Origin: an uncultured Candidatus Saccharibacteria bacterium
GTDB taxonomy: Bacteria > Patescibacteriota > Saccharimonadia > Saccharimonadales > 2-12-FULL-41-12
NCBI GenBank assembly: GCA_964648105.1
Contig: CAZYMH010000001.1
Coordinates: forward strand, 79,999-143,998
DNA length: 64,000 bases
Direction: 5' to 3'
The translations under genes were made by a program, and so were the position numbers. This document shows, piece by piece, positions 23,770 to 50,001 of this stretch; positions within the stretch are counted from its first letter, which is position 1; each line of letters starts with the position of its first letter. The notes under the pieces are model-generated. The model was not told the origin of the DNA. It saw only the letters and a list, made by a program, of their open reading frames with translations, and did no database searches.

Positions 23770-23779
23770 AGCATTAAAC

Positions 23780-24538: not shown

Positions 24539-24572
24539 TTTTTTCTACAGATACAAGCTCAGGTGCTTTCAG

Positions 24573-25130: not shown

Positions 25131-25327
25131 GTCTTGAACTCGATAATGAGATCATGACTGTCAATGAGGCCAGGGAGATCATGCATGAGTCAACTACTGG
25201 CATGTCTGAGTATGAGGTTGAGGATCTTATCAATAACATGCACCTACTGGCACGAGCCTTTATAGAAACGGTTCAAAAAGATGAAGAATTCAGAGTAAAC
25301 ATAGCGTATAATAGAGGTGATAAGTAG
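25127..25327 (+). CDS. hypothetical small protein
   Basis: 66 aa, 4-nt overlap with the upstream ORF, immediately upstream of the recombinase. Confidence 0.45.
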   Translation: MSLELDNEIMTVNEAREIMHESTTGMSEYEVEDLINNMHLLARAFIETVQKDEEFRVNIAYNRGDK

Positions 25328-25342
25328 GAGAAATGGTTCTAA

Positions 25343-26887: not shown

Positions 26888-26921
26888 AAACCTGGTGTCC
26901 TAACCGTTAGACGATGAGACC
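26847..26921 (-). tRNA. tRNA-Glu(UUC)
   Basis: Cloverleaf: GGTCTCA/TGAGATC acceptor, anticodon loop TTTTCAT, T-arm CGGGG-TTCGATT-CCCCG, encoded CCA. 75 nt. Confidence 0.9.
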
Positions 26922-27694: not shown

Positions 27695-29134
27695 CTACAC
27701 GTAAACAGTCGCTACACCACCATTAGCCATAACAACATGACCTGCTGGTGTTTTGCTTACTTGTACGCGGCGTAGATTATTAAGACACGGCGAGCCGCTA
27801 GCATCAGTGCCACCGCCTACTTTAAGAAGTATGTCTTGTCCAGACGCAAAGCTAATCTTAAATACTCGCAAATTATCAAAATACTGCACTTTTTCGGTGA
27901 TATTTTTGCCATCATGTATACCTGTATTTGCAAAATTACCACTTACTCTTTGCATACTATACGTTGTTGAGTTGTCTTGAATATGCCGCGTCAAATAATT
28001 TATCAGCCATTTGTGAGAATGTTTGCTCGGGGTGTTAGTCGGTAAGCCAATTGCATCGTTATAACTCGCCAGTGCAACCTCACGACTATTCAATATTCCC
28101 AAGGCATGAGCTTCGGCGATATCTTCAATCGAAATTGTATCAGGCTTAACACCTTCCAGTGAATTTACTTTATTTTTAGCATGCGACACACTTAACTCAT
28201 CATGTTTATCTCTGTTATTCAATATATTTGTATATGCTTGTCTAACAGAAGAACTGTCTATATTTTTGATTGCTTTTACGATATCACCACCACGATTTGA
28301 GTTTAAGTCTGGTATATTGATTCCAGATTGTCTTGGTCGGATATTTTGTGTACTAGGAGGTGTCCCATCGGGAGTTTTAGCCGTAGTTACTGTACTCATA
28401 TTATCTTTTACGACTTTAGCATCGTCTGGCAAGGTATTCTTATCGTTAAATATTTCTGCTACGTTACGTTTTACTTCTTTTAAATTGTCGTTATCACAAC
28501 TACTTAAAGCCCATAAACCAAGTGCAGCTGCACCAATTAACCCGAGTATTACCAATCCTTTTTTGTTCTTCTCTTTTTCTTGCTTAGTCTCTTCTAGCAC
28601 TGCAGTTTGATTACTTTTTTGGTCTTTTCCGACGTATTGTCTTAAAATTGTGTTATCTGGCTGAACCTCATCGACAGTATATTGAGGGTAAACAACTGCC
28701 TGCCACCCCGAATATTGCTTAGCACTTTTTTTGATTTTTTTATCTTTTTTCGATTTAACAGATGGGTCATTTTGGTTTGAAGGCCTATCTTCCACAACCT
28801 CCTCAGGCATTTTTTCATTTTTTACAGTATTGTCAGAATCATCTTTATTTGCTCTTTTTTCTTTTAGTCTGCTAAATATCCCGATAAATTTCCCACCTTC
28901 TTGTTTCTTGGGTGGTTCAGTTGACATTGAGTTATCATCTTCGCCAGTTCCATTATTCTTTTCAATCGGATTATCTGTTACAGAAAAATCACCTTCTTCG
29001 TCTTCGACCATATCTATACCTTCGACTACTGTCGTTTCATCTGGTTCTACATCAATTATTTCAGTTTCATCAGGGTAGTGTATTCTTTCGTCTTCTGGAA
29101 GCTTGGCGTTTAATTTATTAATAATATCGCCCAT
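27695..29134 (-). CDS. hypothetical single-pass membrane protein (acidic N-terminal region, extracytoplasmic C-domain)
   Basis: 479 aa: D/E/K-rich N-terminal half, TM GLVILGLIGAAALGLWAL, then a C-terminal domain. Confidence 0.6.
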   Translation of the reverse strand: MGDIINKLNAKLPEDERIHYPDETEIIDVEPDETTVVEGIDMVEDEEGDFSVTDNPIEKNNGTGEDDNSMSTEPPKKQEGGKFIGIFSRLKEKRANKDDSDNTVKNEKMPEEVVEDRPSNQNDPSVKSKKDKKIKKSAKQYSGWQAVVYPQYTVDEVQPDNTILRQYVGKDQKSNQTAVLEETKQEKEKNKKGLVILGLIGAAALGLWALSSCDNDNLKEVKRNVAEIFNDKNTLPDDAKVVKDNMSTVTTAKTPDGTPPSTQNIRPRQSGINIPDLNSNRGGDIVKAIKNIDSSSVRQAYTNILNNRDKHDELSVSHAKNKVNSLEGVKPDTISIEDIAEAHALGILNSREVALASYNDAIGLPTNTPSKHSHKWLINYLTRHIQDNSTTYSMQRVSGNFANTGIHDGKNITEKVQYFDNLRVFKISFASGQDILLKVGGGTDASGSPCLNNLRRVQVSKTPAGHVVMANGGVATVYV

Positions 29135-29151
29135 TTCACGGTTTTCTTTGC

Positions 29152-29277
29152 CTAGTCGATTTGATCTTTGGCACTATATAATTCTTGTTCTAAAGCACTC
29201 ATACGTGCTTCCATGTCGTTAATTTGCTTCTGCAAACTCTCATCTTTTTTTCTAAAAAATCCAAGCTCTGGTGACAT
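29152..29277 (-). CDS. possible small coiled-coil protein (41 aa)
   Basis: Below the track cutoff. ATG at 29277; sequence MSPELGFFRKKDESLQKQINDMEARMSALEQELYSAKDQID. The stop lies 17 nt upstream of the next start. Confidence 0.35.
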   Translation of the reverse strand: MSPELGFFRKKDESLQKQINDMEARMSALEQELYSAKDQID

Positions 29278-29381
29278 ATAACTCTCCTCTTACTTAGCTA
29301 CATTATATAATTTAACTACATCATACAACCATTATTATACTTAGTCAATTTTATTAAGAAGCATAAGTTTAATAATTTTTT

Positions 29382-29419
29382 ACAAAACAAAAACCCCCCT
29401 ACCTACTTCGGTAGAGGGG
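29382..29419 (-). terminator. Rho-independent terminator
   Basis: On the minus strand, a CCCCTCTACC-gaag-TAGGTAGGGGGG hairpin followed by TTTTTGTTTTG. It lies downstream of gene 29503-30459. Confidence 0.7.
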
Positions 29420-29502
29420 TAATTATTTAGAGCGGTCAGTTTTTAGGATCCTATACCGTTCTTACACTCGGACTGTCCATTTATCGACAAAATTCAGTGG
29501 GT

Positions 29503-30459
29503 TTAAGCACGAATACGTCGAGAAAGAACGTTGTAACCTAGTGCAGCTACACTACTAACTACTATAAAGATAGCAACGACGCTACCTGCACCAGTTTCTG
29601 GCATTGCAGTTGGAGTAGTTGTTGTAGTTGTAGTTGGAGGAGTAACTACTGGTGGAGTAGTTGACTCAAACTTCACATTCTTAGCACATGCATCAGCAGT
29701 CTTCCACTCTGAATTACCATCAGCGTATTTTACCAATACGCTTGCAACAATTCGGTAAGAACCATCTTTTGCATATGTATGACTTGCAGTTTGGCTGTTT
29801 ACAACAGTACCGTCACCAAAGTCGATTTTGTAGTCAACAATAGTTGCATTGTTAACTGAACCACTTACAGTTACTTCAACCTTACGAGTTTTGTCGTAAG
29901 TTTTTACATCGGCTGCTTTACAAACACCAGTAGAAACTGGAGGTTGCTCTTGGCAAGTTACTTTAACTTTGAAGTTCACAAACTCTGTTGTAGAACCAGT
30001 TAATGTACCGATATTTACACCATTTACAATTGTATCTGGCAAAGTTTTAATAGCAGTTGCATTACCATCATAAAGAACAGTAGTACCGTTTATTAAACTT
30101 TGTGTTGCACCGTTAGGCAAACTAACACTTGCCGTGTCGCTTGTACCAGATGCACCGCCTAAATCAGTGGTAGCTGTAGCAGTACTAACACCGCCATTTG
30201 TTGGCAAAGTAGCCTTCAAAATAACGTTATTTAGTCCACCAAATTGGGTGTTGCTTAGTTGCATGCTGTATTTTAGTTCATCACCACAGCTTGCAGATAC
30301 GCTGTTAGAGTATGAACCACCTTTAGTTACATTTTTAACTAGGTAGTTATCACCACCAGCTAATTGGCCTGGGCTACCAGCCAAGGCAGCACCAGAAAAT
30401 GCTAAAACCACAGTATTAAGTACAGCACTGGTCATAGCTAAAGTTTTTAGATTTTTCAT
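29503..30459 (-). CDS. sortase-anchored surface protein with PKD domain (MPETG sorting signal)
   Basis: Signal peptide, PKD motif IDFGDGT...HTYAKDGSY, T/P linker, then a C-terminal MPETG + hydrophobic helix + RRIRA tail. SD AAGGAGA. Confidence 0.8.
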   Translation of the reverse strand: MKNLKTLAMTSAVLNTVVLAFSGAALAGSPGQLAGGDNYLVKNVTKGGSYSNSVSASCGDELKYSMQLSNTQFGGLNNVILKATLPTNGGVSTATATTDLGGASGTSDTASVSLPNGATQSLINGTTVLYDGNATAIKTLPDTIVNGVNIGTLTGSTTEFVNFKVKVTCQEQPPVSTGVCKAADVKTYDKTRKVEVTVSGSVNNATIVDYKIDFGDGTVVNSQTASHTYAKDGSYRIVASVLVKYADGNSEWKTADACAKNVKFESTTPPVVTPPTTTTTTTPTAMPETGAGSVVAIFIVVSSVAALGYNVLSRRIRA

Positions 30460-30568
30460 AACTTATCTCCTTATATAAAATTTAGATATTATTTAGTCTA
30501 GTTTTAGTTATTAAATTATTTATTACTTAACAAACTAGATAGTTACTGGCTTTCAATTTATTTCAGTT

Positions 30569-30688
30569 GGGGGTTGTTACGACTAGCTGATTTTGTTCGA
30601 GAGCGGATGCTCAAGATTAAAATCAGCTAGTCGCCGAGGGGAGTTGGGAGCGTGTCTTGGGTTTAACCAAGCTTGCGTCGACCAACTC
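30569..30688. repeat. structured hairpin module A (homologous to 36593-36739)
   Basis: GGGGGT, then a perfect 15-nt inverted repeat CGACTAGCTGATTTT (30580-30594) / AAAATCAGCTAGTCG (30619-30633), then a nested hairpin GAGTTGG...CCAACTC (30641-30688). Confidence 0.7.
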
Positions 30689-30834
30689 GCCTCACAACCG
30701 ACTATTACTTCAATGGAATCACTTCCTTTCTTTGCTCACAATGTGTGGGCGAAAATGGAATATTGTAGAGTCATAAAGACTCTGCTAGTCCAATGGAACC
30801 ACCCTACCTTTCAAAATCGATTTTTGAAATTACC

Positions 30835-32025
30835 TCACTCGGGACGAGTGGGGTATGTGATCGCGAACGTCTGCGACTTGATGTCGCTGGCGTTGCCGAG
30901 CGAGGCGGTCATGGTGACCATCATGCTGGTGGGCCGAAGCGGGTCCGAGGGTGCGTAAAAGATCACGCAGTGGTCAGAGTTCCCGGCCGGAAGGCTGGAA
31001 AAGGTGACCTCAGCGGTCGGCACGTTGCTATCGCAACGGCTAACCGCTCCGATACCCGGGTCGATCGTGAGTGACCCGTTGGGGTCGCTCGCGTTCACCT
31101 TGATAGTGAAAGGCCCACTCGACTTCCCCGAAGGGATGTCGTTAAGAGTCGTGGAAGCCACGATCTTGATCGACTTCGCCGAAGGGGGCGGATTGACTGG
31201 CGGGGTCGTGGTCGTCTGCGTCGAGCAGATGTTGACAACGTTTCCGTTGTTCTCCTTGTAGACCACCTTCACCGTGCCATCTGCCATGGTCATGGTGACC
31301 ATCGAACAGTTGGCATTGACTTGGACAGTGGTCTGGTTGATGACCGTCGTGTTGTTGTTGACGATCGTGCAGACCGAGCTGTTGTTCCAGGTCCCACCCT
31401 TGGCCTCACAGTCCTGACGAGCGGTCTGTGTCGTGTCGACACTGGCCGTCTGAGAGGACTGGTTACCCTGACAGGCTGCTCCGCTGTTAGCGGGATTGAC
31501 CTGTCCGTTCACGCACGAAGATGCGGGCGTGGGCGTGGGTTGCGGAGTCGGAACGACTCGCGGCTTAGGCTTGGGCCGCTTCGGGACGCGAACGGGAATT
31601 CGTCCGGTCCGAAGGTTACCACAGGTGGTCGCATAGGACATCTTGACGATGCCGTCGGCGGTGTCGGAAGCGTAGGCCCAGATGACCTCACCTTTGCGGT
31701 AAGTGGTCATCCCGACAGGCACAAAACGTCCACCCTTGCAGGTAAAGTTCTGAACTCGGGTTGTCCGAGCCACGGTCACCTTAACAAGGTGCTTTCGCAC
31801 CAGGTCACTGGCAGACCCGTCGAGACGGACCTTGTTGTGGGTCGGCTTCACAACGTCATCCATAACGCCGTGATTCGTCCATCCCTGGACGACTGCCTTG
31901 ACAGTGTTGCCACCGCCACACGCACCGGCCGCCGAGGCGGTTGAGCTGTTCACGAGCCCGAAGGCCATGAACGAACTTGCGATCGCCCCAGAGGCGATCA
32001 GAAAGTGCTTCATATTACGAGCCAT
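30835..32025 (-). CDS. G+C-rich secreted hypothetical protein (foreign composition)
   Basis: 396 aa with AAGGAGG 5 nt upstream of the ATG. Signal peptide MKHFLIASGAIASSFMAFGLV..ASA, Pro-rich linkers (KRPKPKPRVVPTPQPTPTP, TTTTPPVNPPP) and Cys pairs. Shadow ORFs in several frames are typical of high-GC DNA. Confidence 0.75.
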   Translation of the reverse strand: MARNMKHFLIASGAIASSFMAFGLVNSSTASAAGACGGGNTVKAVVQGWTNHGVMDDVVKPTHNKVRLDGSASDLVRKHLVKVTVARTTRVQNFTCKGGRFVPVGMTTYRKGEVIWAYASDTADGIVKMSYATTCGNLRTGRIPVRVPKRPKPKPRVVPTPQPTPTPASSCVNGQVNPANSGAACQGNQSSQTASVDTTQTARQDCEAKGGTWNNSSVCTIVNNNTTVINQTTVQVNANCSMVTMTMADGTVKVVYKENNGNVVNICSTQTTTTPPVNPPPSAKSIKIVASTTLNDIPSGKSSGPFTIKVNASDPNGSLTIDPGIGAVSRCDSNVPTAEVTFSSLPAGNSDHCVIFYAPSDPLRPTSMMVTMTASLGNASDIKSQTFAITYPTRPE

Positions 32026-32334
32026 GACTACCTCCTTTTAGGAGAGATTGGCCATATACGTGGTCATGACGTCACGTACAGACACATTACCCTGATTGGG
32101 CGATGCACACTACTAGCAGTCTAATACTAGCAAAGTGCATCGTCCAAGATGTATTGTCTAAACGTGCTTAGTCATGTTTTGTGATTCATTAAAAATAGTC
32201 GATTGTTATATTAAGGCTTTCTATCGACGAACGAGCTACTAACTACTAGTGTAACTAGAGTAAAAGCTCAAGTTCGGATCAAAAACCCATAACTATCTAG
32301 TTTAAGTACACCATCCCAACTCTCCCAAAAAATC

Positions 32335-32363
32335 CTGTTTCCAAGGACCGTCCTTGGAAACAG
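32335..32363 (+). repeat. REP-like perfect palindrome, copy 1
   Basis: CTGTTTCCAAGGAC-C-GTCCTTGGAAACAG (14-nt arms). Confidence 0.9.
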
Positions 32364-32577
32364 CTAGTGAAAAAGCTATGTAATGGTGTGTTTTTGCCTA
32401 ATTGTTAAGCTGCTACCACCCACCTCGTTTGACAGATCCACCTCTGTTGCCACTATTCGAGCGATACTGTTGATATATTAGCACAAGCGTGCGTTTTTGT
32501 CAATAGTATTATACTAAACTTCCCCTCTCTCAAAAAACATGTTCTTAAACCCCCCACACTCCCCTCAATCCTTTGCT

Positions 32578-32596
32578 TCCAAGGACCGTCCTTGGA
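32578..32596 (+). repeat. REP-like palindrome, copy 2 (shorter arms)
   Basis: TCCAAGGAC-C-GTCCTTGGA, 31 nt upstream of the RAYT start. The flanking C-rich leader resembles that of copy 1. Confidence 0.85.
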
Positions 32597-32626
32597 TACA
32601 AGTTCCACACATGATATTATTCAACT

Positions 32627-33271
32627 ATGCCAAGTCGTAACCGAATAAAAGCTTATTCATCAGACAGCTACTACCACATTTATAATAGAGGTGTAAATAA
32701 ACAAAAAATCTTCATAGATGATGAGGATCATCGAGTTTTCCTAAATTTATTCAAACGTTATCTAAGTAAAGCCCCAGTAAAAGACAATAAGGGTAGAGAG
32801 TACGATTGGCTCTATGAACAACTAAAGCTGCTAAGTTATTGCATCATGCCAAACCACTTCCATTTGTTTATTTTTCAGAACGAATCAACAGCCATGGAGC
32901 GGCTTACCCGTCGTGTATTTACATCTTACACTCAATATTTTAATAAAAAATATCATCGAGTCGGGCCACTTTTCCAGAGCCGATATAAAGCATCATTGAT
33001 CCTATCTGAATCATATCTACTCCATATCTCACGCTACATTCATCGAAATCCAAAAGATTATAGCAACTACAAATATTCTAGCTATAAATATTTTTTAGGT
33101 GTCCATGATTGTCCAGAGTGGCTAAATGCCCAAGCATTACTCGATATGTTCGATAACGATACCTCCCACTATCAAGCTTTTGTAGAGGACTATAAGAATT
33201 ATAAAGAAACATTAAACGAAATCTTGCCAGAACTAGCCAACACACATAACCTACAATCTACAAATCCTTAA
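32627..33271 (+). CDS. IS200-like Y1 HUH transposase, REP-associated tyrosine transposase (RAYT) type
   Basis: YHIYNRG, HUH motif MPNHFHLFI and catalytic-Tyr region SRYIHRNP. 214 aa, bracketed by REP-like palindromes. Confidence 0.8.
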   Translation: MPSRNRIKAYSSDSYYHIYNRGVNKQKIFIDDEDHRVFLNLFKRYLSKAPVKDNKGREYDWLYEQLKLLSYCIMPNHFHLFIFQNESTAMERLTRRVFTSYTQYFNKKYHRVGPLFQSRYKASLILSESYLLHISRYIHRNPKDYSNYKYSSYKYFLGVHDCPEWLNAQALLDMFDNDTSHYQAFVEDYKNYKETLNEILPELANTHNLQSTNP

Positions 33272-33318
33272 ATATATAATACTCCTGCAACTACACTCCT
33301 AAACTACGGGCTTTGTAC

Positions 33319-33343
33319 GTTTCCAAGGACGGTCCTTGGAAAC
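33319..33343 (-). repeat. REP-like palindrome, copy 3 (inverted relative to copies 1-2)
   Basis: GTTTCCAAGGAC-G-GTCCTTGGAAAC. The central G (versus C in copies 1-2) gives the opposite orientation. It lies 48 nt downstream of the RAYT stop. Confidence 0.9.
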
Positions 33344-33442
33344 TATTTCTATTGTCGGGTACAAGAAACAAAAAGAATCCTAAATAAATGAGTATTTAGG
33401 ATTCTTAATTAATATTTATTTTATGTTGACTATTGCTGGACT

Positions 33443-35125
33443 TTAGTAATATCGCCTTGAGGCAAAGACATAGTATCCTACGCCGCTGGCTACGCTAACA
33501 ATCACGAAGACTGCTGCCATGCTACCAGGGCCTGTGTCTGGCATTACACCACTACTAACTACCTGTGTAGTCGGTGTGTAGGTATTAGTCGAGTTGTAGT
33601 AAGTAACTTTTTCGGTGATGACTGTTTTGCAGTCAGGGCTGTCAATTGGCAAGTTTTCTTTACCTGCAACTGGGCAATAAATGACCGATTTTTCGAATTT
33701 GATGGTTTTTTTGCAATCATCTGAGGTTTTGTCGACCTCTGTACCGTTCGCAAGCTTAACCCTGACCGTCCCAACAATCATATAACTGCCGTCTTTGCTA
33801 TAGGCATGAGTGGCCGTTTGATCTGTAGATTTGGCTCCGTCACCCCAGTCGATCTGATAACCAACAATCTGAGCGTTATCGACACTTCCAGTTAGCACTG
33901 CCCTAACTTCTCGTTTGTTCGAATCTACCCCTGTTAAGTTCAATAGGCTACATTTGCCATCAGATACAGGTGGTGGTGGCGTTTCGTAAACTACTGTTTT
34001 GGTGCAAGCCTCGGAAGCATGAGACACTTCTTGACCATTTGCTAGTGTAAAGAAAGCAGTAGCTTTAACTACATATGTGCCGTCTGCTTGGTATTCATGA
34101 GTTTGGCCGACAGGAGTAGCGGTAGTGGTATTGGCTGAGCCATCACCCCAGTTAATGACAGCATTTTTGAAGGTTGCTCCGTTGGCTGTAGTTGTCTCAA
34201 ATTTAGTTACTTTTAGTACTCGACCAGTTTGCTTGGTCACTTCGAGCAAAGTACACTTGTAGTCGGCTGGTGGCGGTGGTGGCGTCTCTATTACAATCGT
34301 TTTTTTGCAAACTTCGCTCGATTTGTCGACCACCGTTCCGTTAGCTAATTTTACCTTGACTGTAGCCGTTACAGTATAAGTACCTGCCTGAGCATAGGTG
34401 TGGTTAGCAGTTTGAGTAGCTGAAGTTGTGCCATCACCCCAGTTTATTACATAGCCGACGATTTCGGCATTAGTTACCGAACCAGATACAGTTGCCGTAA
34501 CTTGCCTACCTTGTTGGCTTACAACTTGTACAGCTAAGCCAGTGCAAGCTCCATCGGACACTGGTGGTGGCGGTGTATCACAGTCTACTTTTGCCTGAAA
34601 GACCACAAACCGAATTTCGTTCAACGATACTCCTACACTACCGATATTAACTCCTGAGCCAATTACTCCATCAGGTAAGCTAGATATCACACCACTATTG
34701 GTATTAAGCAGCTCGGTTGAGCCAGCAATATAATTAAGCTTTTTGGCACTAGATAGGTTAAGTGTAGCCTGTGCAGTTGTGGTGGCTGGTTGCATGTTAG
34801 AACCACTGATAGTCGCTGTAGAGGTGTGAGTCGCACTAACAGTACTTGGCAAGCTAGCCCGAACATTAACATTACCTACTACTCCTGGGCCAGGGTTATG
34901 CAAGCGAATCTTATACTGAACTGTTTCACATGGGTCGGCGGTTTGGACACTGGCGAAACCACTGTTTTTTGTGACATTTTTTATTCGGTATATATCACCG
35001 CCTTCAATTTGGCCTTCGCCGATGGCAAACACTAGTCCGCTTGATAAGCCTGTTAACATACCTACGACTAGGCCGAAAATTGACGCCGTCCGCACCGTTT
35101 TTGCAATTTGTAGTCTTAATCTCAT
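33443..35125 (-). CDS. sortase-anchored surface protein with three PKD-like repeats (MPDTG sorting signal)
   Basis: Signal peptide and an N-domain paralogous to 29503-30459. Three repeats with (I)NWGDG...H.Y...G.Y motifs. C-terminal MPDTG + TM + SRRYY. Confidence 0.8.
   Translation of the reverse strand: MRLRLQIAKTVRTASIFGLVVGMLTGLSSGLVFAIGEGQIEGGDIYRIKNVTKNSGFASVQTADPCETVQYKIRLHNPGPGVVGNVNVRASLPSTVSATHTSTATISGSNMQPATTTAQATLNLSSAKKLNYIAGSTELLNTNSGVISSLPDGVIGSGVNIGSVGVSLNEIRFVVFQAKVDCDTPPPPVSDGACTGLAVQVVSQQGRQVTATVSGSVTNAEIVGYVINWGDGTTSATQTANHTYAQAGTYTVTATVKVKLANGTVVDKSSEVCKKTIVIETPPPPPADYKCTLLEVTKQTGRVLKVTKFETTTANGATFKNAVINWGDGSANTTTATPVGQTHEYQADGTYVVKATAFFTLANGQEVSHASEACTKTVVYETPPPPVSDGKCSLLNLTGVDSNKREVRAVLTGSVDNAQIVGYQIDWGDGAKSTDQTATHAYSKDGSYMIVGTVRVKLANGTEVDKTSDDCKKTIKFEKSVIYCPVAGKENLPIDSPDCKTVITEKVTYYNSTNTYTPTTQVVSSGVMPDTGPGSMAAVFVIVSVASGVGYYVFASRRYY
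33686..34576 (-). repeat. three tandem ~300-nt coding repeats (PKD modules)
   Basis: Each unit starts with PPPP(V/A)(S/D)(D/Y)(G/K)xC and ends with CxKT(I/V)... Boundaries are derived from protein repeat positions and are approximate. Confidence 0.6.
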
Positions 35126-35145
35126 TATTTTCTCCTTAAATTCCC

Positions 35146-36354
35146 TTAAAATGCCCCTGGATTGCCTGGATTATCAGATACAACTGGCCAGTTTATTGTG
35201 TCTTGAGCTTGATTACCCGCTTTGTCGGTAACTACACCAGTTGCAGTTGCCTCTCCGACGACTGTGCCAGCTTTGGCATCTTTGCAATATTCGCCTGTTT
35301 CATCGCCAGCGTAGACATCTGAGACGGCATTTATATCACCACTAAAAGTTATGGTTGGCATGCCTTTTATGTCACCTAGTCCATCTGGATCACTAACATA
35401 TCCACAGATCTGTAAAATACCATTAACTAACATATGCTGAGGTTTAACCATGTCAATTACTGGTGGAGCATTTTTGGGTGGAGTTGGTGGTTTAGGATTC
35501 TCTGGTGGAGTTGGCGGTGGTGGCGAAGGTGGCAGTGGCTTATCAACACACGTTACTTTGGCATATGCTGATGAACTCATTTTGTCTCTGAGGCTAATTA
35601 GTACGGAATTTTTGGTGTCAACATTGACATTCCCCATAAAAGCTCGGTATTCAGCAACGTTTTTTAGGACATTCTTGAGCGAAACTGATTGGTCACCAAC
35701 ACCGCGTGCCGCAGCTTCTGACGAACCAGCGTTACTAACGCAGTTTACTCGGGCAGTAGCCTCACTATGAAGCGTGAATGAGGTGTTAAAAGATGAAACT
35801 TCGACTACTCTACCCTTAATAATTGGAGCTTTGATTACTCGCCTAGCAGGCTTTTTATTAATCATTGGGATGACTACATTATGGCAATCTCTACCAGAGA
35901 AACCACCGCCTCTTTTAACATAACCGGTTGGTGAGTCTTTGTCTTTGCAGGCATAGACATTGCTGTCCATGCGTCGGACTTTTTGACCATATTCGTTTAC
36001 GTAGTAGTTCCAAGCTTTTTTATACCACCTGCAAGCTTTGGCTTCATGGCCAGGCTGATTAGTTTCGTTAATCCGAGTGTCGGCTACAACTGTCGCTTTA
36101 CCATATAATATCTCATCTAAATCAATGTTTTTACTAACCGTGTTTTGGGCTTCGGCAGTCATTGCTACCTCTGTTGGTCCGCTTAAACTAACGGACTTCT
36201 CCGTAGCCGTCGCTACGTTAGGACCAACAAGTGTTGCGGCGACACAAACTGCACCAATTAATCTGGCTTTTGATGAGCCAATCGCCTCGAATATCTGATG
36301 TGATAATTGTTCGTTTGGTTGTGTTTGTATTGGCATTTCTGGTGTTTTTGTCAT
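35146..36354 (-). CDS. secreted hypothetical protein with Pro-rich linker and C-terminal Ig-like domain
   Basis: 402 aa. SD AAGGAGGGG. Signal/anchor ARLIGAVCVAATLVGPNVATA, linker PLPPSPPPPTPPENPKPPTPP, and a C-domain with SDPDG. Confidence 0.65.
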   Translation of the reverse strand: MTKTPEMPIQTQPNEQLSHQIFEAIGSSKARLIGAVCVAATLVGPNVATATEKSVSLSGPTEVAMTAEAQNTVSKNIDLDEILYGKATVVADTRINETNQPGHEAKACRWYKKAWNYYVNEYGQKVRRMDSNVYACKDKDSPTGYVKRGGGFSGRDCHNVVIPMINKKPARRVIKAPIIKGRVVEVSSFNTSFTLHSEATARVNCVSNAGSSEAAARGVGDQSVSLKNVLKNVAEYRAFMGNVNVDTKNSVLISLRDKMSSSAYAKVTCVDKPLPPSPPPPTPPENPKPPTPPKNAPPVIDMVKPQHMLVNGILQICGYVSDPDGLGDIKGMPTITFSGDINAVSDVYAGDETGEYCKDAKAGTVVGEATATGVVTDKAGNQAQDTINWPVVSDNPGNPGAF

Positions 36355-36592
36355 TGTACCCCTCCTTAGTTAAATTATTAGATGGTCTAATATATTCGTT
36401 AAAGTTTAATAACACCTAACCCAGTACTCTTTGCCTCACCCCAGCTAGTCTAAATATATGTACAATACTTATTGTACTCCTATGCAAATTTAATACAAAT
36501 TGTATAAATTGTATAATATACTACATTTTCACGCTACTTTATGCTTATGCTTATGGTTTTTTGTAGCTAAATAGTCACAAATTTTAAATTAT

Positions 36593-36739
36593 GGGGGTAC
36601 GACGGCTGATTCAAATAATAGGAGCTAAAAAGCTCAGGGGACTATTAAAGTGAATCAGCCGATCGATGGGGCGAAATAGCGGGCAAATGAGGAGTATTAC
36701 CAAGAAGGTAATTAGTCTCATTGAGCCATATTACGCCCC
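36593..36739. repeat. structured hairpin module B (homologous to 30569-30688)
   Basis: GGGGGT, then CGACGGCTGATTCA (36600-36613) / TGAATCAGCCGATCG (36651-36665) with one bulge, then a nested hairpin GGGGCG...AATGAG...CTCATT...CGCCCC (36668-36739). Confidence 0.7.
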
Positions 36740-36759
36740 AGCAATCGACCTACTCTAGG

Positions 36760-37668
36760 TCAGCCAGCCACGGGTGTGGGCTGGATGACCTTGGTGGGTA
36801 CCCGCACAACGACGCAAGCGTCGTCGCGTCGGGTGAGGCCCACCCCTGCGACGGCCACCACGTTGCAGAGCTTGCCGCTCCGCACCGTGGTGGTCTGATA
36901 GACGAACCGCTTGCTTGCCCCAGGGGCAAGCGAGACGTTCGCAGTCAAACGGCCGTTCTTGAGCGAGGTCCCCGAAGGGAGCTTGCCCGATAGGACCATG
37001 CCCGAGGGCATGACGTCGCTCAAGCGAAGCTTGAGCGTCACGCCACCAGTGTTCTTCACCACAACGGTGAAGATCACCTTGCCACCCTTGCGAGTAGACT
37101 TCTTGTTCGCGTCCTTGCGAACGACGAAGTTGGCCACAGCGGGCTGCTCCACCGTTACGGTGGGCGGCGGGTTCATGACAACCGTCGGTGGTGGCACCAC
37201 CGGGGTGGCCGGGGTGGCCGTGACGGTCGGCACGGTCGTGGGAGGCTTCGTCTTGTCGACGCAGCCACTCGGCACCGCAGGGACCGACACCATTTTGGTG
37301 TCGACACCCGATCGGCCGTCGGCCCAACGGAGGACGAACTTGGCAGTTCCTCCCCTGTAGGTTGACGATACCGAAACCATCCACATGGCATCCTTGCCAC
37401 CTACGGCCGCAAGGCGGCTGCCTTGCGACTTGCCGTCGAGGAGAGCCTCGACGGTCATGTTGTGCGTGGGACCGTAGGCAGGCTGCTTTTCGCGGTTACC
37501 CGCGGAAAGCGTGACCTGGCCACTGGCCTTGCCATTTGCGTCGTAGACGCAAATGGTCTTGGCTGACTGGACCGTGGTCCAGGCAGCGGCTGGCGATGCC
37601 ACAATAGCACCACCAACGAGAGATGTGGCCACTGACGTGGCTAGGGCGATGTTCCTCAGTCGAGGCAC
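36760..37668 (-). CDS. G+C-rich secreted protein with DUF11/CARDB-like repeat domain (foreign composition)
   Basis: GTG start with AAAGGAGA upstream. Signal peptide ALATSVATSLVGGAIVASPAAA. C-terminal pattern GGKVIFTVVVKNTGGVTLKLRLSDVMPSGM...LAPGASKRFVY...NVVAV is typical of DUF11. Multiple shadow ORFs. Confidence 0.75.
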   Translation of the reverse strand: MPRLRNIALATSVATSLVGGAIVASPAAAWTTVQSAKTICVYDANGKASGQVTLSAGNREKQPAYGPTHNMTVEALLDGKSQGSRLAAVGGKDAMWMVSVSSTYRGGTAKFVLRWADGRSGVDTKMVSVPAVPSGCVDKTKPPTTVPTVTATPATPVVPPPTVVMNPPPTVTVEQPAVANFVVRKDANKKSTRKGGKVIFTVVVKNTGGVTLKLRLSDVMPSGMVLSGKLPSGTSLKNGRLTANVSLAPGASKRFVYQTTTVRSGKLCNVVAVAGVGLTRRDDACVVVRVPTKVIQPTPVAG

Positions 37669-38057
37669 TTCATCTCCTTTACTGGAGTTGACGAATAAGT
37701 ACTATGAATACTACTGGTACTGCAAACTTCTGACTAATTACATAATCAAAACTTTGCAATACCTTAGTACAAAATCACTTAAACTTATGCCTTCACTAAA
37801 CCTACCGAATTTAAAAAGATCGATTGCTATATCTAGGTAATAAAACGAAACAAAACTAATTGTCTCTAGTATTAAAACCTATGACTATTTAGTTAATTAC
37901 ATGTAAAAGTTCAACTTACTACTCAAATAATCTGAGACAAAAATAGAGCAGTAATTACAGATATAATTTTATCACACATAGGCATATTTGTCAATACGCT
38001 TATGTAGTGGCTTTACTGACCTGCAATTACTGCTCATAAAGTGATATAATATAGCAA

Positions 38058-40856
38058 ATGATATTCAAAAATACCGACGTAAACCCACCCGATAAAGGTG
38101 CTGTTCTGCTCTTGCAAGTACCACGTAATAACGAGAAAAAAGAGCTAGCTACTGAGCAAGTTTTGGCGGCCATACATGGGCTACTTACCAAGGCCGAAAC
38201 AATGAGCTTTTTTGCTAGTACAGTTCACGAGAAGATTAGTTTCGAGATTGCTACCTTAAATGGCCGAATCTGCTTCTTTATCTGGACACCCGAACACCTC
38301 AAACAATATGTCCAAGATCAAGTTTATGCCCAATACCCTAGCGTTCACATTTCGGAGGTAGAAGATTACGCTCTGCATAACCAAAATTCGGTCAATATGG
38401 CCTGTGAGCTAAAATTAGCCGCTCCAGACCCTTTGCCTATCAAAACCTTCCCAAGCTTCGAGGTCGACCCATTGGCAGGTGTAACGGCCACTCTAGCTCA
38501 GCTAGACGAAGGCGAAAATGCATGGGTACAAGTGGTCGCTCGGCCCGCCCAGTCTGGCTGGTACAAAAAAAGCGAGCGTTACGCCCAAAATATCAGAGGT
38601 GGAGCTAAGAATAATGGTGCTTACACTGGGCTATGGGGAGCTTTATCGGCCCCACCTGAGCAAAAAAATACCACGACAACTCTTGCTGAGCATGAATCGG
38701 TCCGAGCCAGAGCCGCCGAAGAAAAAAGCCATAAACTGGCCTATCAAACCACTATTCGCATAATTTATAGCGGTAATTCGTCTGAATCTCAAGCCAGAAT
38801 GCGTTTACAATCGGTTATTGCTTCATTTAAACAGTTCAACTCAACATACCTAAACGGTTTTGTAGCTGGCAAAATGACTCAGCGGCACGAGGATATAGTT
38901 GCCTACCAAAACCGAAATTTTAGCCGCAAAACTATGATTCTGAACATCGAAGAGCTAGCGAGCGTCTACCATCTGCCACACACCAATGTTGAGACCCCTA
39001 ATATATTATGGGCCAATGCCACGACCGCCGAGCCACCAGCCAATTTACCAATCAAACTAACCGAAGAAGTTAGCCCAATCGCGGTGACTAATTTTCGGGG
39101 CCATAATACACTATTTGGCTTAACCAGAAACGATCGCGGTAGGCATGTGTATATTATTGGTCAAACTGGCACTGGTAAATCGGGTTTACTCGAGCTTCTT
39201 ACTATCTGTGACATCGATACCAACCATGGATTTGCGGTTATCGACCCGCACGGTGATTATGCTTTGAGTGTGCTACAAAGTATCCCAGAAAGTCGTATGA
39301 ACGACGTAATTTACTTCAACCCCGCCGATAGTCAATTTCCGATCCCCTTTAACCCTTTGGAAGTATCCGACCCTAAGCTCAAAAGTCATACTTGCTCAGA
39401 GCTAATTGGCGTCTTAAAACGAATGTTTGATTCTTGGGGTCCACGGCTAGAATATATCTTAAGGTACAGTATTTTGGCGTTGCTTGATTACCCCGAAGCT
39501 ACCATGCTCGACATCACCAAAATTTTAACCGACAAAAAGTTTCGTAACGATGTCTTGCAGTACGTCAATGACCCAGTTGTCAAGCAGTTTTGGACGGTCG
39601 AATTTGCTAGCTGGAACGATAAATTTGCTGCCGAAGCTGTCGCCCCAGTACTCAATAAAATCGGAGCCTTTACGGCTAACCCTTTGGTACGTAACATTGT
39701 CGGCCAGCCACACGGAAGTTTTAATATCCGCCAAATCATGGACGAAGGCAAAATCTTAATTGTCAATTTGTCGCGAGGTTTGATTGGCGAGGACAACGCC
39801 GCCCTTCTTGGCTCGCTGATGGTTACTAAAATCCAGATGGCCGCCATGTCGCGGGCCGATATCCCCAAAGAAGCTCGTAAGCCATTTTACCTATATGTTG
39901 ACGAATTCCAGAACTTCGCCACCGATAGTTTTGCAACGATTTTGTCAGAAGCACGTAAATATTCGCTTAATTTGACTGTTGCCAACCAATATACCGCCCA
40001 AATGATGCAAAGTGTTCGCGATGCGGTATTTGGCAACGTTGGGACGATCGTTAGCTTCCGTACAAGTGCCGACGATGCCCGTAGTATGCTCAAATATTTC
40101 GAGCCAAAATTTACCGATTACGACTTAGTTCACATGCATAATCGCCATTTTGTGGTTAGCATGACTATCGAGGGCGAAAAAGTTCAAGCCTTTTCGGCCG
40201 TTACCAAAGATTTAACTCCTGTAAACTTTGATAACACTGCAGAGATTATCGCCAAAAGTCGTGAACTTTATGCCACCGATATCGAATCAGTCGAAAAATA
40301 CATTGATAGTCGTTATCACCTCAAACCAACTGTTGGCCAAAAACCTAGTTTTTCTAGCAAAAGACCTTCTAGGCCTAAACCACCTGCCCCTATCGAAGCC
40401 GTAGAGCCTAGCCTTGAACAAACTCCGCCCCCACCTAGCTCCCCAGAAACTAATTTTGAGAAATCTCCCGAAAAATCTTTCGAAACTCTCGATGACAAAC
40501 ACGAAATTACCAAATCAAGCTCCAAACAATCTGTTATTTCGGCTCTAGCTAAACTCGCCGAAAATGCCACCACCAAACCTAGGCGTAAACGCAAACGAAC
40601 CCGAAAAAACAAAAATAAAGTAACATCTGTCGACTCATCACAGCAGCCTCAAAATATCAGTCCTCCCAAATCTGATCTGCCAAAAGCCAAGCCAACTATC
40701 AAAAGTGAGCCTAAAATTGAAGCCTCGAAGCCTCAAAAACAATCACTAGCAGAACCAAAATCTCAAACACCTAAACCAGTTGCCAATAAATCACCTAAAA
40801 AAGACGATATGGTAGACTTCAGCGGCAACGACGAAATCGTAATCAAACTCCGCTAA
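38058..40856 (+). CDS. type IV secretion coupling protein-like (TraD/VirD4/HerA-FtsK superfamily) ATPase with long K/P/S-rich tail
   Basis: Walker A IIGQTGTGKSGL, Walker B FYLYVDEFQNF, and a ~330-aa N-terminal domain of unknown function. The last ~190 aa are low-complexity basic/proline-rich. Confidence 0.65.
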   Translation: MIFKNTDVNPPDKGAVLLLQVPRNNEKKELATEQVLAAIHGLLTKAETMSFFASTVHEKISFEIATLNGRICFFIWTPEHLKQYVQDQVYAQYPSVHISEVEDYALHNQNSVNMACELKLAAPDPLPIKTFPSFEVDPLAGVTATLAQLDEGENAWVQVVARPAQSGWYKKSERYAQNIRGGAKNNGAYTGLWGALSAPPEQKNTTTTLAEHESVRARAAEEKSHKLAYQTTIRIIYSGNSSESQARMRLQSVIASFKQFNSTYLNGFVAGKMTQRHEDIVAYQNRNFSRKTMILNIEELASVYHLPHTNVETPNILWANATTAEPPANLPIKLTEEVSPIAVTNFRGHNTLFGLTRNDRGRHVYIIGQTGTGKSGLLELLTICDIDTNHGFAVIDPHGDYALSVLQSIPESRMNDVIYFNPADSQFPIPFNPLEVSDPKLKSHTCSELIGVLKRMFDSWGPRLEYILRYSILALLDYPEATMLDITKILTDKKFRNDVLQYVNDPVVKQFWTVEFASWNDKFAAEAVAPVLNKIGAFTANPLVRNIVGQPHGSFNIRQIMDEGKILIVNLSRGLIGEDNAALLGSLMVTKIQMAAMSRADIPKEARKPFYLYVDEFQNFATDSFATILSEARKYSLNLTVANQYTAQMMQSVRDAVFGNVGTIVSFRTSADDARSMLKYFEPKFTDYDLVHMHNRHFVVSMTIEGEKVQAFSAVTKDLTPVNFDNTAEIIAKSRELYATDIESVEKYIDSRYHLKPTVGQKPSFSSKRPSRPKPPAPIEAVEPSLEQTPPPPSSPETNFEKSPEKSFETLDDKHEITKSSSKQSVISALAKLAENATTKPRRKRKRTRKNKNKVTSVDSSQQPQNISPPKSDLPKAKPTIKSEPKIEASKPQKQSLAEPKSQTPKPVANKSPKKDDMVDFSGNDEIVIKLR

Positions 40857-43161: not shown

Positions 43162-44520
43162 TTATGGCTTTAAGGGCTCATTTATAAACCATTTAAGAAG
43201 TTTTGAATTATCTCTTTCCATTGCTTGAACTGCATAATCCAAGTCCATTATATGAGGGGCACACATTCCACCTTGATATTCTACTTCAGGCCCTTTTTGG
43301 AAGAAGTAAAAATTATAAAACCTATTCAATGCCTTTACGCGTTTTGGCTCCATAATAATTCCCCAATTTTTAACACCACGAGTCATGGCATCTCTTCCCG
43401 CTAGCCTCCATAAATTATTTACGATTGCACGATGTTTAGTATCATTCTTTGAGGCACTGGTAGCTAGCTCCTCAGTGATTCCATTTCTATTTTGTTCCGT
43501 AAAAGTTTTCATGTCATCTTCACTATAAAACGACATTGCCGATAGAAGTGGCGGCAACTCCTTACCCTTAGAAAATACTCTTACAGTAGCGACACATTCA
43601 TCACCTTCAAATGCTGCAAAAAAGCGAGTTTGATTTAAATATTTATCATTATATTCTTCAAGGCTACCGTAGCCTTTTTCATTCCATATATCTTGTTCAA
43701 ATCTTAAAACATCTTTAAAACAATCTGATTTTTTATCACTTATGAAATAGTAACCTGTGCCATCTTTATCTGTATCTAATAATATATCTTCTGATGGAAT
43801 ATCTTCTTTTGATGAATTGCTGTTATGTAGTTTCTTTATTAGTGCAATACTTCCCATTCCTGCAACTAAGGCGGTGTATGTTTTCCAATCTCCTGCGACA
43901 TCAATACTTCTTCTTACTACACCCTCATATTTAGTCCCATCTGCTACTGTAAGTAATTTCGATGCACCATAACCTATTCCAGTACTTGCAACAGAAATAC
44001 CTAATGAAGCCTTAAGAGCTGTTATATTATCGTCTTTGCTAGTGCGATTTTCTTCATAAAAATGTCTTCTTGCTACAACTGCTGCTGAACCCACTGTTAA
44101 AGCAAATGCAGTATCTTTAAAAAAACTTTTGCCTGAATATTCAGGCTGAGGATTTACTGGAGAAAAAAACCTTGAAGCAATTTTATCTCTATATTCTCTT
44201 AATTTATTACTGTACCTACGTAAAGCATACGCTGAAGCAACTCCACCTGTAGTTTCTATAAACATAGTAGCAGCACCAACTGCAGCAGCAGAAAGAACAG
44301 GATTGCCTGTTGCTTCTAATGTAGTGACAGCAGCATAGACACGGGTTAGCTCATTGATTGGGCTTTGCTGAAAGGCTAGGCTTGAGACTGCAGCTCCAAT
44401 TGCTAATTTATTACCAACATTTGAAGTAGTGAGTGGAGTTTCATCTTTATTATCATATTTAAGACAATCCAAATGTTTACTAAAAAAGTCTTGATTTTTT
44501 GCTACGGCAACACTACTCAT
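43162..44520 (-). CDS. two-domain protein: hydrophobic N-terminal half + GNAT-fold N-acyltransferase-like (FeeM/LuxI-like) C-terminal half
   Basis: 452 aa. The C-terminal pattern FAAFEGDECVATVRVF...EELATSA...IMEPKRVKALNRFYNFYFFQKGPEVEYQGGMCAPHIMDL resembles N-acyl amino acid synthases. The call is pattern-based only. Confidence 0.45.
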   Translation of the reverse strand: MSSVAVAKNQDFFSKHLDCLKYDNKDETPLTTSNVGNKLAIGAAVSSLAFQQSPINELTRVYAAVTTLEATGNPVLSAAAVGAATMFIETTGGVASAYALRRYSNKLREYRDKIASRFFSPVNPQPEYSGKSFFKDTAFALTVGSAAVVARRHFYEENRTSKDDNITALKASLGISVASTGIGYGASKLLTVADGTKYEGVVRRSIDVAGDWKTYTALVAGMGSIALIKKLHNSNSSKEDIPSEDILLDTDKDGTGYYFISDKKSDCFKDVLRFEQDIWNEKGYGSLEEYNDKYLNQTRFFAAFEGDECVATVRVFSKGKELPPLLSAMSFYSEDDMKTFTEQNRNGITEELATSASKNDTKHRAIVNNLWRLAGRDAMTRGVKNWGIIMEPKRVKALNRFYNFYFFQKGPEVEYQGGMCAPHIMDLDYAVQAMERDNSKLLKWFINEPLKP

Positions 44521-49273: not shown

Positions 49274-49333
49274 ATCTATCCATTTTACCTCAATAAAATT
49301 AAAGATTCGACTATTTTATGTTAAATTTAAAAT

Positions 49334-49960
49334 ATGAAAATTGCCGTTATTGCCGCCAATGGACGAACGGGCGTAGAATTTGTACAGATGGCTCTCGAGG
49401 CAAATCATGTGGTAAAAGCGGGTATTAGGGGGAAAAATAATCTACCTAAACATCCAAGCCTAGAAGTAGTTAACTGCGATGCAACCGATAAATACGAGGT
49501 ACTTGGGCTAATTTCTGGCGTAGATGCAGTAGCGAGTTTTATTGGTCATACCAAAAATTCGATAGATGACCTACAGACAACAACTATCAAAAACGTTATC
49601 TCAGCCTGCGAAAAAAACCAAGTGAAAAGACTGGTGAGTTTAACAGGCACAGGCGTAAGACAACAAGATGATAAAATCACTTTTTTAGACAAACTGCTCA
49701 ATTTTGGAGTTTTGCTAGTCGATCGAAAGCGAGTTGTCGATGGCAGAGATCATGTCCGTGAACTCGAAAAAAGTGAACTTGATTATACAGTTCTAAGAGT
49801 ACTGAAGCTAACAAATGGCGAATTTAAAGACTATAAATTATCCAAAAATGGCCCAGCTATGAGCTTTGTACCACGTAAAACAGCGGCCAATGCGGCCATG
49901 CGAGTTATAGAAAAGTCACTATATATAAGAGACTTACCGATAATCACCGATAAAAACTAG
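49334..49960 (+). CDS. NAD(P)H-binding Rossmann protein (NmrA/atypical SDR-like)
   Basis: N-terminal MKIAVIAANGRTG glycine-rich loop. 208 aa. Confidence 0.65.
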   Translation: MKIAVIAANGRTGVEFVQMALEANHVVKAGIRGKNNLPKHPSLEVVNCDATDKYEVLGLISGVDAVASFIGHTKNSIDDLQTTTIKNVISACEKNQVKRLVSLTGTGVRQQDDKITFLDKLLNFGVLLVDRKRVVDGRDHVRELEKSELDYTVLRVLKLTNGEFKDYKLSKNGPAMSFVPRKTAANAAMRVIEKSLYIRDLPIITDKN

Positions 49961-50001
49961 ATTTCTATAACCATATGTATAAAAATTAAAGTATTATTTT
50001 T

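Follow-up and report, generated by a model that had tools for sequence, protein, structure and literature searches.

Conserved complementary boxes, probably paired in the mRNA, enclose a native G+C-rich gene for a predicted secreted protein in Candidatus Saccharibacteria

Why is a single gene in an AT-rich bacterial genome strongly G+C-rich, and is such a gene foreign? The question is raised by an open reading frame (ORF) at 36760-37668, on the minus strand, of a stretch of 64,000 nucleotides (nt) from an uncultured Candidatus Saccharibacteria bacterium (GenBank assembly GCA_964648105.1, contig CAZYMH010000001.1, forward-strand positions 79,999 to 143,998). This whole stretch is hereafter called the window. 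An earlier note on this DNA took the ORF (island 2) and a second G+C-rich gene nearby (island 1) for foreign genes brought in by a specific capture or insertion process. Our comparisons favour, with somewhat better than even confidence, a different reading, in which a conserved mRNA panhandle would surround a synonymously GC-recoded native gene for a hypervariable secreted adhesin-like protein.

The compositional anomaly is sharp and coincides with the gene. Counted over 300 nt at a time, G+C content steps from 0.31 (36350-36649) to 0.59-0.64 (36650-37699) and back to 0.28 (37700-37999). The ORF has 302 codons and a G+C content of 0.636, with values of 0.60, 0.54 and 0.76 at the first, second and third codon positions (GC1, GC2 and GC3). 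The 45 other ORFs of at least 150 amino acids (aa) in the window served as background; they have a mean G+C content of 0.392 and a mean GC3 of 0.334 (standard deviation, sd, 0.053), from which the GC3 of island 2 departs by about 8 sd. Island 1 (30835-32025, minus strand) has a GC3 of 0.743 and lies 4.7 kb away, and these two genes are the only ones in 64 kb whose GC3 exceeds the window median by at least 0.2. The enrichment of island 2 is limited to its coding region, the 5′ leader having 30% and the 3′ trailer 42% GC. Third-position A has a frequency of 0.07-0.09 in both islands versus 0.31 in the background, AAG makes up 95% versus 23% of lysine codons, and ATA, TTA and AGA are absent from both islands, whose codon usages are almost identical. 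No marked GC skew accompanies the G+C-rich segment. Translation of island 2 starts at a GTG codon (37668-37666) with the Shine-Dalgarno sequence AAAGGAGA four bases upstream (37680-37673). The description in the earlier note of an abrupt island confined to one ORF, with a GTG start and a ribosome-binding sequence, therefore stands, as does that of two G+C-rich genes about 5 kb apart in a surface-protein locus sharing a flanking hairpin module. Overlapping shadow ORFs are also present, as expected because the DNA is GC-rich; those of at least 60 aa number five and not four.

Both junctions are genuine. A Logan contig from another sequencing run (L001) is identical to the window across the whole ORF, about 210 nt of the AT-rich leader and about 110 nt of the trailer. 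Two further Logan contigs (L002 and L003) show 99.5% identity over island 1 and its neighbour, with the same GC-rich/AT-rich junctions. Misassembly, which the earlier note had considered as a possible source of the junctions, is excluded by these independent assemblies.

The gene context in the window comprises a histidine kinase, a DUF8128/TrwB-type coupling ATPase, PKD and DUF11 proteins with MPETG- or MPDTG-type sorting signals, and PK-PGK-TIM. This gene order is repeated in the loci L004, L009, L011, L018 and L024. Island 1 belongs to a family with a variable N-terminus and a conserved C-terminal domain of 115 aa, and in all loci the family occupies the slot directly upstream of a sortase-anchored PKD gene (L004, L007, L009, L011, L013, L016, L018, L022, L023, L024 and L026). 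These loci are from Saccharibacteria or share Saccharibacteria gene context. The family proteins are 34-74% identical to the window copy. Their genes have GC3 values of 0.55-0.84 versus locus medians of 0.34-0.66, the highest GC3 in every locus with called neighbour genes. The values are 0.55 in L004 and 0.62 in L018 (locus medians 0.38 and 0.34), and 0.74, 0.78, 0.81, 0.81 and 0.84 in L007, L009, L011, L016 and L024 (medians 0.39, 0.47, 0.38, 0.66 and 0.54, respectively). The full family alignment offered no conserved stretch usable for a locus scan; a scan of genomes with the conserved C-terminal domain returned one locus, in a Candidatus Saccharibacteria metagenome-assembled genome (MAG). 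Imported base composition decays toward the resident equilibrium. At 34-74% identity synonymous sites are saturated and an imported composition would have decayed; therefore, the GC-richness must be inherited and actively maintained.

A search of 5.8 billion proteins with the 302-aa product of island 2 found only the protein itself and no close homologue. An exhaustive HMMER search revealed a modular protein whose N- and C-terminal parts have separate relatives. The N-terminal domain (aa 25-135) is 38-41% identical to small proteins with sortase-like anchors (P0123, P0139 and P0153), of which P0153 comes from a Candidatus Woesebacteria MAG, where its gene has an ordinary GC3 of 0.38. The C-terminal part (aa 139-302) is about 40% identical to small DUF11 proteins ending exactly in PV(A/T)G. 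Genes of this type are GC3-rich in all three Saccharibacteria contigs recovered. One of them, L007a (L007 1934-3274; GC3 0.71), is a positional analogue lying between the histidine kinase and DUF11/PKD genes. Another, the gene of P0100 (L026 160-1026; GC3 0.70), has as neighbours a boxed island-1-like gene and a PKD gene, the latter with a GC3 of 0.24. Boxes of the same kind as those around island 2 bracket both of these genes. P0113 and P0177 entered the comparison as proteins, without surrounding DNA, and a profile search, the third homologue search, yielded few further relatives. The slot and composition of these homologues leave us confident that the gene is a native Saccharibacteria gene and not foreign DNA, and recent horizontal gene transfer (HGT) appears to be effectively excluded.

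What distinguishes the two islands from their neighbours, apart from composition, is a conserved bracket of sequence elements. In the window it consists of the following.

37966 to 37994, minus strand: strong sigma-70-type promoter (TTGACA, 17 nt, TAAAAT, extended -10 TG; 11/12 consensus matches), about 74 nt upstream of the 5′ box.
37872 to 37895, minus strand: 5′ box, sense strand TAACTAAATAGTCATAGGTTTTAA, complementary to the 3′ box.
37669 to 37871, minus strand: AT-rich 5′ leader (30% GC), with candidate inner-helix arms at 37820-37828 and 37732-37741 and the Shine-Dalgarno sequence at 37673-37680.
36760 to 37668, minus strand: GC3-rich ORF of 302 aa with a GTG start; the predicted product is a secreted two-domain beta-sandwich protein.
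36740 to 36748, minus strand: candidate 3′ arm of the inner helix, just after the stop codon, suggestively paired with leader positions 37820-37828.
36604 to 36660, minus strand: trailer hairpin, stems GGCTGATTCA and TGAATCAGCC, with the apical mini-hairpin GAGCTTTTTAGCTC at 36622-36635.
36564 to 36587, minus strand: 3′ box, plus strand TAGCTAAATAGTCACAAATTTTAA, the sense-strand complement of which pairs with the 5′ box.
30532 to 32303, minus strand: sister boxed unit of island 1, with 5′ box at 32282-32303, ORF at 30835-32025 (396 aa, GC3 0.74), trailer hairpin at 30580-30633 and 3′ box at 30532-30553.

Each unit has the same order: strong sigma-70 promoter, leader with the 5′ box followed by a hairpin, strong Shine-Dalgarno sequence, GC-rich ORF, long trailer hairpin and 3′ box. 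The leader is 220-370 nt long and the box consensus is CAAACTAGATAGTCATGGGTTTTTAA. The boxes of both islands are imperfect inverted repeats sharing the core ACTARATAGTYA, and the motif reached its observed count in none of 100 shuffles of the window. Exactly one inverted box pair surrounds the island-1-family gene in 11 of 11 contigs spanning both flanks, and at least 12 contigs, drawn from unrelated studies, show the same architecture. Of 12 units, 11 have a promoter with a perfect TTGACA and an extended -10 at a distance of 74-175 nt upstream of the 5′ box. The boxes on both sides of L007a are a variant of their own (ATTTATTGTTTAgTTCATAGGTTTTTAAT), with the outer half replaced and complementarity kept, and L026a has a degenerate copy of the 3′ box. 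A hairpin stands inward of each box; that of the trailer has a stem of 12-15 bp, which varies in sequence between loci with pairing kept, and an apical GAGC...GCTC mini-hairpin. The hairpin module, which the earlier note regarded as a sign of insertion, is thus part of a conserved leader and trailer architecture and not an insertion scar. Leaders have 30-51% GC across units versus ORF GC3 values of 0.56-0.84. Neither the Rfam 15 search of leader and trailer (29000-38500; no relevant match at gathering score or E ≤ 1), nor the search of viral contigs for the box motif, nor a literature search for GC-rich genes, codon usage or the box sequence in Saccharibacteria returned anything relevant.

The gap between the 3′ box and the next start codon is only 29-73 nt in island-1-type units, and therefore the GC-rich gene and the PKD gene are apparently co-transcribed. 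The PKD gene of the window (29503-30459) has a GC3 of 0.22, the second lowest in the window after 0.205 (ORF 43162-44520), and the GC3 of the PKD gene downstream of the GC-rich gene is below the locus median in all loci (L004, L007, L009, L011, L018, L024, L026 and the window). Co-transcription would thus place two neighbours at opposite extremes of codon bias on one message.

Since 11 of 12 units have the promoter ahead of the 5′ box, this box should be transcribed. Across 11 units, 90% of cells in the box pairing are standard pairs, and 9 of 26 pairs have changed on both sides (reached in 0 of 500 shuffles). Transition mismatches on the sense strand comprise 22 G·U versus 3 A·C (p = 1.6e-4). 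The energy of the box duplex is -22 to -42 kcal/mol versus -6 to -11 kcal/mol for shuffled partners, and the sense-strand duplex is the more stable one in 11 of 12 units. The two cognate duplexes of the window reach -29.8 and -23.5 kcal/mol versus -18.2 and -13.3 kcal/mol for the cross pairs, and differences specific to one unit (G to A, T to C) are mirrored solely in its own partner box. In a 1351-nt transcript of island 2, both the minimum-free-energy and the centroid folds close on a 21-bp box duplex, and the same predicted fold contains a second helix between the leader at about 37820 and the first bases past the stop codon. Leader and trailer are thus complementary and kept so by compensatory change, as judged from covariation, G·U asymmetry, cognate stability and transcript fold. 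These features suggest that the boxes probably pair in the sense-strand mRNA rather than act as a DNA site, and from them we infer pairing in vivo. Predicted duplexes of whole leaders with whole trailers (RNA duplexfold) gave long spurious interactions no better than those of shuffles. Elsewhere in the window, a 37-nt imperfect inverted repeat (73% complementary) at 49282-50023 flanks an ORF of ordinary composition (49334-49960) and may reflect chance or terminators.

Several points weigh against a panhandle around a native recoded gene. Concerted evolution of inverted repeats in the DNA could also have produced the covariation of the boxes. As the loci share phylogenetic history, the shuffle and binomial statistics overstate their independence. 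The inner helix, 10-14 bp long and different in sequence at each locus, does only a little better than chance inverted repeats around control genes, which score 8-11, and RNAalifold gave no consensus structure on the leader alignment, which is poor. The GC3 elevation is weaker (0.56-0.62) in L004, L018 and L026b. As to origin, P0181, a DUF11 protein ending in PAVTG with 40% identity over about 100 aa, is encoded in a contig of 73% GC, and the PAVTG/DUF11 module may have been anciently exchanged with high-GC bacteria. Finally, the mRNA-level cause of the high GC3 is a hypothesis, and the glycolytic genes, on which the comparison was made, give no sign that high expression raises GC3 here.

With these reservations, the panhandle reading can be outlined as follows. 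Island 2 and island 1 would be the two boxed expression units of a conserved surface-protein locus. In its transcript, the boxes would form a duplex of about 21-28 bp closing the whole ORF into a panhandle, which the second, inner helix probably reinforces. Such a duplex could lock both mRNA ends against nucleases. Alternatively, it could be an RNase III processing site that separates the cistron from the co-transcribed AT-rich downstream gene. A role in stabilisation or processing is what we infer, and the GC-rich synonymous sites would be an ORF property linked to the boxed architecture. Selection at the mRNA level is in our view their most likely cause, because the enrichment ends where the ORF ends, goes with the bracket in different protein families and is missing from the unboxed Woesebacteria homologue, which is ordinary. 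Candidate selective gains are resistance to AU-preferring nucleases, compact folding that lets the distant boxes meet, and translation kinetics. More tentatively, the co-evolving boxes and the GC recoding may together constitute one dedicated and undescribed post-transcriptional device of Saccharibacteria, giving a closed-loop message, stable or RNase III-processed, for a few hypervariable secreted proteins of host interaction. In a bolder variant, the recoding may match the codon usage of a high-GC actinobacterial host, with the message or gene acting in or on the host.

The boxed genes vary strongly between strains. Between L019 and L020, identity is 98% in the leader and 89% in the C-terminal part, with about 1 kb of unalignable N-terminal coding sequence in between, and both have a GC3 of about 0.82. 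Compared with the window, L002 has an island 1 of 99.5% identity, an adjacent PKD protein of just 78% identity and no RAYT-like insertion. L001 departs from the window exactly within the trailer hairpin. On these comparisons, the boxed genes are hypervariable and frequently exchanged, and the locus recombines often. The two allelic segments, L019 474-1874 and L020 486-1862, are from two rhizosphere strains, have almost the same C-terminal domain and suggest allelic replacement inside the boxed gene. The boxed gene at L026 2096-3184 has an island-1-like N-terminus joined to another C-terminal part (...DPDGDN...), which by eye resembles the unboxed 402-aa protein of the window (35146-36354). Such a chimera would mean domain shuffling among genes of the locus.

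Frequent recombination allows a reading at the DNA level, in which the inverted boxes are recombinase or homology sites for inversion or allele exchange of the hypervariable surface gene, and recombination drives GC-biased gene conversion. Such conversion has been proposed for bacterial genes that recombine and reported from GC-rich loci of antigenic variation such as Borrelia vls, and in a recombining hypervariable locus it is the main alternative explanation of the GC-richness. The mosaic alleles with sharp breakpoints in close strains (L019/L020, L002, and L001 within the trailer hairpin) agree with it, both boxes of a unit co-vary per genome as concerted evolution predicts, and a serine recombinase gene is present at 25343-26887. 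However, this recombinase lies 10 kb off, next to a tRNA gene and a Gabija island, and the boxed unit keeps a constant orientation relative to the neighbour gene in every locus, with no sign of inversion. The upstream and downstream boxes retain systematic differences (ATGGG versus ACTGG) that homogenising recombination would erase. The excess of G·U over A·C and the stabler sense duplex point to RNA, the leader inside the box pair has no GC enrichment, and no silent cassette copies exist in the 64 kb. In addition, the effects of GC-biased conversion reported in bacteria are small. We consider this reading unlikely.

Alternatively, the boxes could be operators for a DNA-looping regulator, and the GC-rich codons could result from translational selection in a very highly expressed, S-layer-like gene. 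The core ACTAGATAGT is indeed near-palindromic and very strongly conserved, the promoter of each unit combines a perfect -35 with an extended -10, the Shine-Dalgarno sequence is strong, and a two-component histidine kinase gene is located nearby. Recognition by one protein is difficult to reconcile with the boxes of the two units of one genome, which differ from each other with each difference mirrored in its own partner only, and with L007a, where the outer half of the box is swapped yet complementary, as fits pairing. The codon shift affects all codon families (AAG, CAG, NNG), and a GC3 shift of +0.4 is far above that of typical translational selection. PK, PGK and TIM, which are expected to be well expressed, have background GC3. 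This reading is, in our judgement, distinctly unlikely.

That two genes were recently captured by a specific insertion or cassette mechanism, from a G+C-rich donor such as the actinobacterial host on which the epibiont lives, is very improbable. This reading draws on the atypical composition of the ORF (GC3 0.76 versus 0.33±0.05, about 8 sd over background), on its atypical codon usage, which looks actinobacterial, on the lack of a close homologue among 5.8 billion proteins and on the PAVTG-ending DUF11 protein of a 73% GC organism. An IS200/RAYT-like transposase gene with REP-like palindromes also lies between the islands. High-GC donors would be at hand, as cultured Saccharibacteria grow on high-GC Actinobacteria according to one report (PMC10633639). 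Against capture, the gene is not missing from, or out of synteny in, the relatives: slot, flanks and GC-richness are all kept at 28-74% protein identity, the slot holding GC-rich homologues or analogues, and every island-1 homologue with recovered DNA context is found in the same Saccharibacteria-type slot. The best domain-level matches (about 40% identity) point both ways, as they include Saccharibacteria or Candidate Phyla Radiation (CPR) proteins and also the one from the 73% GC organism. The N-terminal domain of island 2 is a member of a CPR family. The borders carry no mobility genes, tRNA genes or direct repeats and consist of inverted boxes kept in relatives. The GC step falls at the start codon, with an AT-rich leader inside the box pair; the RAYT-like gene is outside both box pairs, and the sibling-strain contigs L002 and L003 leave no room for it; and no viral contig matched the box motif. 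The view in the earlier note that random independent HGT explains the two genes poorly is one we share. The specific capture it proposed in its place does not hold, since the homologues and their composition proved native to the lineage, which it had itself recognised as fatal to its proposal. As for an assembly chimera of reads from a GC-rich organism with a Saccharibacteria contig, the abrupt change at the gene borders would suit it, but three independent Logan assemblies span the junctions and the architecture recurs in at least 12 contigs of unrelated studies, leaving it a negligible chance.

Other known devices were considered and rejected. For inversion switching (inverton or shufflon), inverted repeats are present, but all loci show a single orientation and no adjacent invertase. 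For an integron cassette, there is no attC, the repeat arms flank the gene at a spacing of 1.3-1.7 kb, and no integrase was found among the Pfam-scanned ORFs (most of those of at least 150 aa). For a diversity-generating retroelement, the scanned ORFs include no reverse transcriptase and the variation has no adenine-specific pattern. A search for vls-type silent donor cassettes, by tblastn and blastn of both islands against the 64-kb window, found only the genes themselves.

The product of island 2 reads as a secreted, non-anchored, adhesin-like two-domain protein, with these predicted parts.

37582 to 37668, minus strand: signal peptide (aa 1-29), N-terminus MPRLRNIALATSVATSLVGGAIVASPAAA followed by W, with likely cleavage after AAA; read by eye.
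37264 to 37581, minus strand: N-terminal all-beta domain (aa about 30-135), strands predicted at low confidence (predicted local distance difference test score, pLDDT), with motifs AWTTxQS and LRWADGRSGVDT.
37144 to 37263, minus strand: Pro/Thr/Val-rich linker (aa about 136-175), from translation and alignment.
36844 to 37125, minus strand: DUF11 (CLIPPER) beta-sandwich domain (aa 182-275), from Pfam, structure model and Foldseek.
36763 to 36774, minus strand: C-terminus P-V-A-G, immediately followed by the stop codon.

The signal peptide noticed earlier can be read in the translation. Of the earlier label "DUF11/CARDB-like repeat protein", the DUF11 part is upheld by a Pfam match (PF01345, aa 182-275) of 35.2 bits versus a cut-off of 24.6, while CARDB (PF07705) gave no match at E ≤ 0.1. 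The domain occurs in one copy, the Pfam scan of the 302-aa protein finding one matched stretch and no tandem array, and the term repeat does not apply. TIGR01451 scored 22.0, slightly under its cut-off of 24, and giant repeat proteins align with the protein over aa about 170-290 only. The AlphaFold2 model is a confident beta-sandwich at aa 180-290 (pLDDT about 90), with low confidence in the N-terminal domain and pLDDT below 50 in the signal-peptide region (residues 1-27). Foldseek matched the model to the CLIPPER domain 9ifr with a target-normalised TM-score of 0.60, the other fold matches being generic tandem Ig-like adhesin or pilin modules; a sequence search of the PDB gave no match. The motifs AWTTxQS and LRWADGRSGVDT are common to sortase-anchored proteins of other CPR bacteria. 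The product of island 2 ends in ...PTPVAG followed by the stop codon and has no LPXTG-type motif with hydrophobic segment and charged tail, whereas neighbouring products carry MPETGAG or MPDTGPG motifs and then a membrane segment. The DUF11 proteins P0100, P0113, P0154, P0177 and P0181, that of L007 (3260-3274) and the window protein share the exact ending P-(x)-V-(A/T)-G, followed at once by the stop codon. This end resembles a sorting motif minus its membrane anchor and occurs in Saccharibacteria-type contigs as well as in the 73% GC organism.

The remainder of the window contains several further genes around the locus. The IS200/Y1-type (RAYT-like) transposase ORF (32627-33271) is surrounded by three copies of the palindrome TGTTTCCAAGGACCGTCCTTGGAAACA (32336, 32574 and 33318). 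L002 and L003 have no such insertion, their similarity to the window ending at 32517, and the gene is strain-specific and outside the boxed units. A Gabija defence pair, GajA (20728-22710; 306 bits) and GajB (18534-20756; 311 bits), lies within 18534-26921 together with small unknown ORFs, and a 514-aa serine recombinase (25343-26887) adjoins a tRNA-Glu gene (26847-26921). This block and a 479-aa ORF (27695-29134) stand between the PKD gene and PK-PGK-TIM, which in relatives neighbour each other, and the block is probably an integrated defence island. The DUF87/TrwB-type coupling ATPase (38058-40856; DUF8128 in relatives) ends in a Lys-, Pro- and Ser-rich tail of about 200 aa. Homologues of it adjoin the surface-protein locus in L004 and L011, and the Woesebacteria homologue (L028) also has one nearby. 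A tmRNA gene is located at 5453-5839 (Rfam 73.6 bits).

Single-gene GC islands in AT-rich genomes are routinely called HGT. Here the anomaly is inherited and kept up throughout a phylum-level lineage, so that composition-based HGT calls in CPR genomes can err. The GC recoding and the co-varying leader/trailer duplex together suggest a module of post-transcriptional control in tiny genomes with few known regulators, acting on the secreted, fast-diversifying proteins that are most likely to mediate host attachment. Saccharibacteria are now genetically tractable (PMC10633639). This makes box mutation and synonymous recoding feasible and could show how a local codon bias withstands the mutational bias of a genome.

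The combination of a whole-ORF panhandle with conserved GC recoding, as it emerges from the compared sequences, occurs in none of the known systems with which we compared it, each of which shares part of it. Horizontally acquired islands also show atypical composition in a short segment, whereas the boxed gene is syntenic and compositionally conserved in distant relatives, has no mobility genes or direct repeats at its borders and loses its enrichment at the ORF ends. DUF11/CLIPPER fibrillar adhesins (PF01345; 9ifr) have the same predicted beta-sandwich as the 302-aa protein, which scores above the cut-off of their hidden Markov model; however, this protein has one domain and no long tandem array, and its PVAG end is without an anchor. 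S-layer genes have a strong promoter and a long stabilising leader. The boxed unit resembles them in its very strong promoter, its long structured 5′ untranslated region (UTR) and its predicted secreted beta-rich product, and differs in its probable trailer pairing and GC recoding. In Borrelia, vlsE is a GC-rich expression site for antigenic variation and, like the boxed gene, a hypervariable surface gene far GC-richer than its AT-rich genome, with recombination implicated. Unlike vlsE, the boxed gene is free of marked GC skew and is accompanied by no silent cassettes in the 64 kb, and its variation is between strains. In rRNA operons, RNase III processing stems flank 16S and 23S rRNA; as is proposed for the boxed unit, inverted sequences 1-3 kb apart pair to enclose a compact, GC-richer RNA, which would allow its excision from a polycistronic precursor. 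The RNA enclosed by the boxes is, however, a translated ORF. Pairing between 5′UTR and 3′UTR within one bacterial mRNA is reportedly found in icaR of Staphylococcus aureus and hbs of Bacillus subtilis, where, as expected for the boxed unit, the duplex would control stability or RNase III cleavage. Unlike these, the duplex of the boxed unit does not cover the Shine-Dalgarno sequence. It is located 220-370 nt ahead of the start codon and surrounds a whole, GC-recoded ORF, and it is conserved with covariation over a phylum-level lineage.

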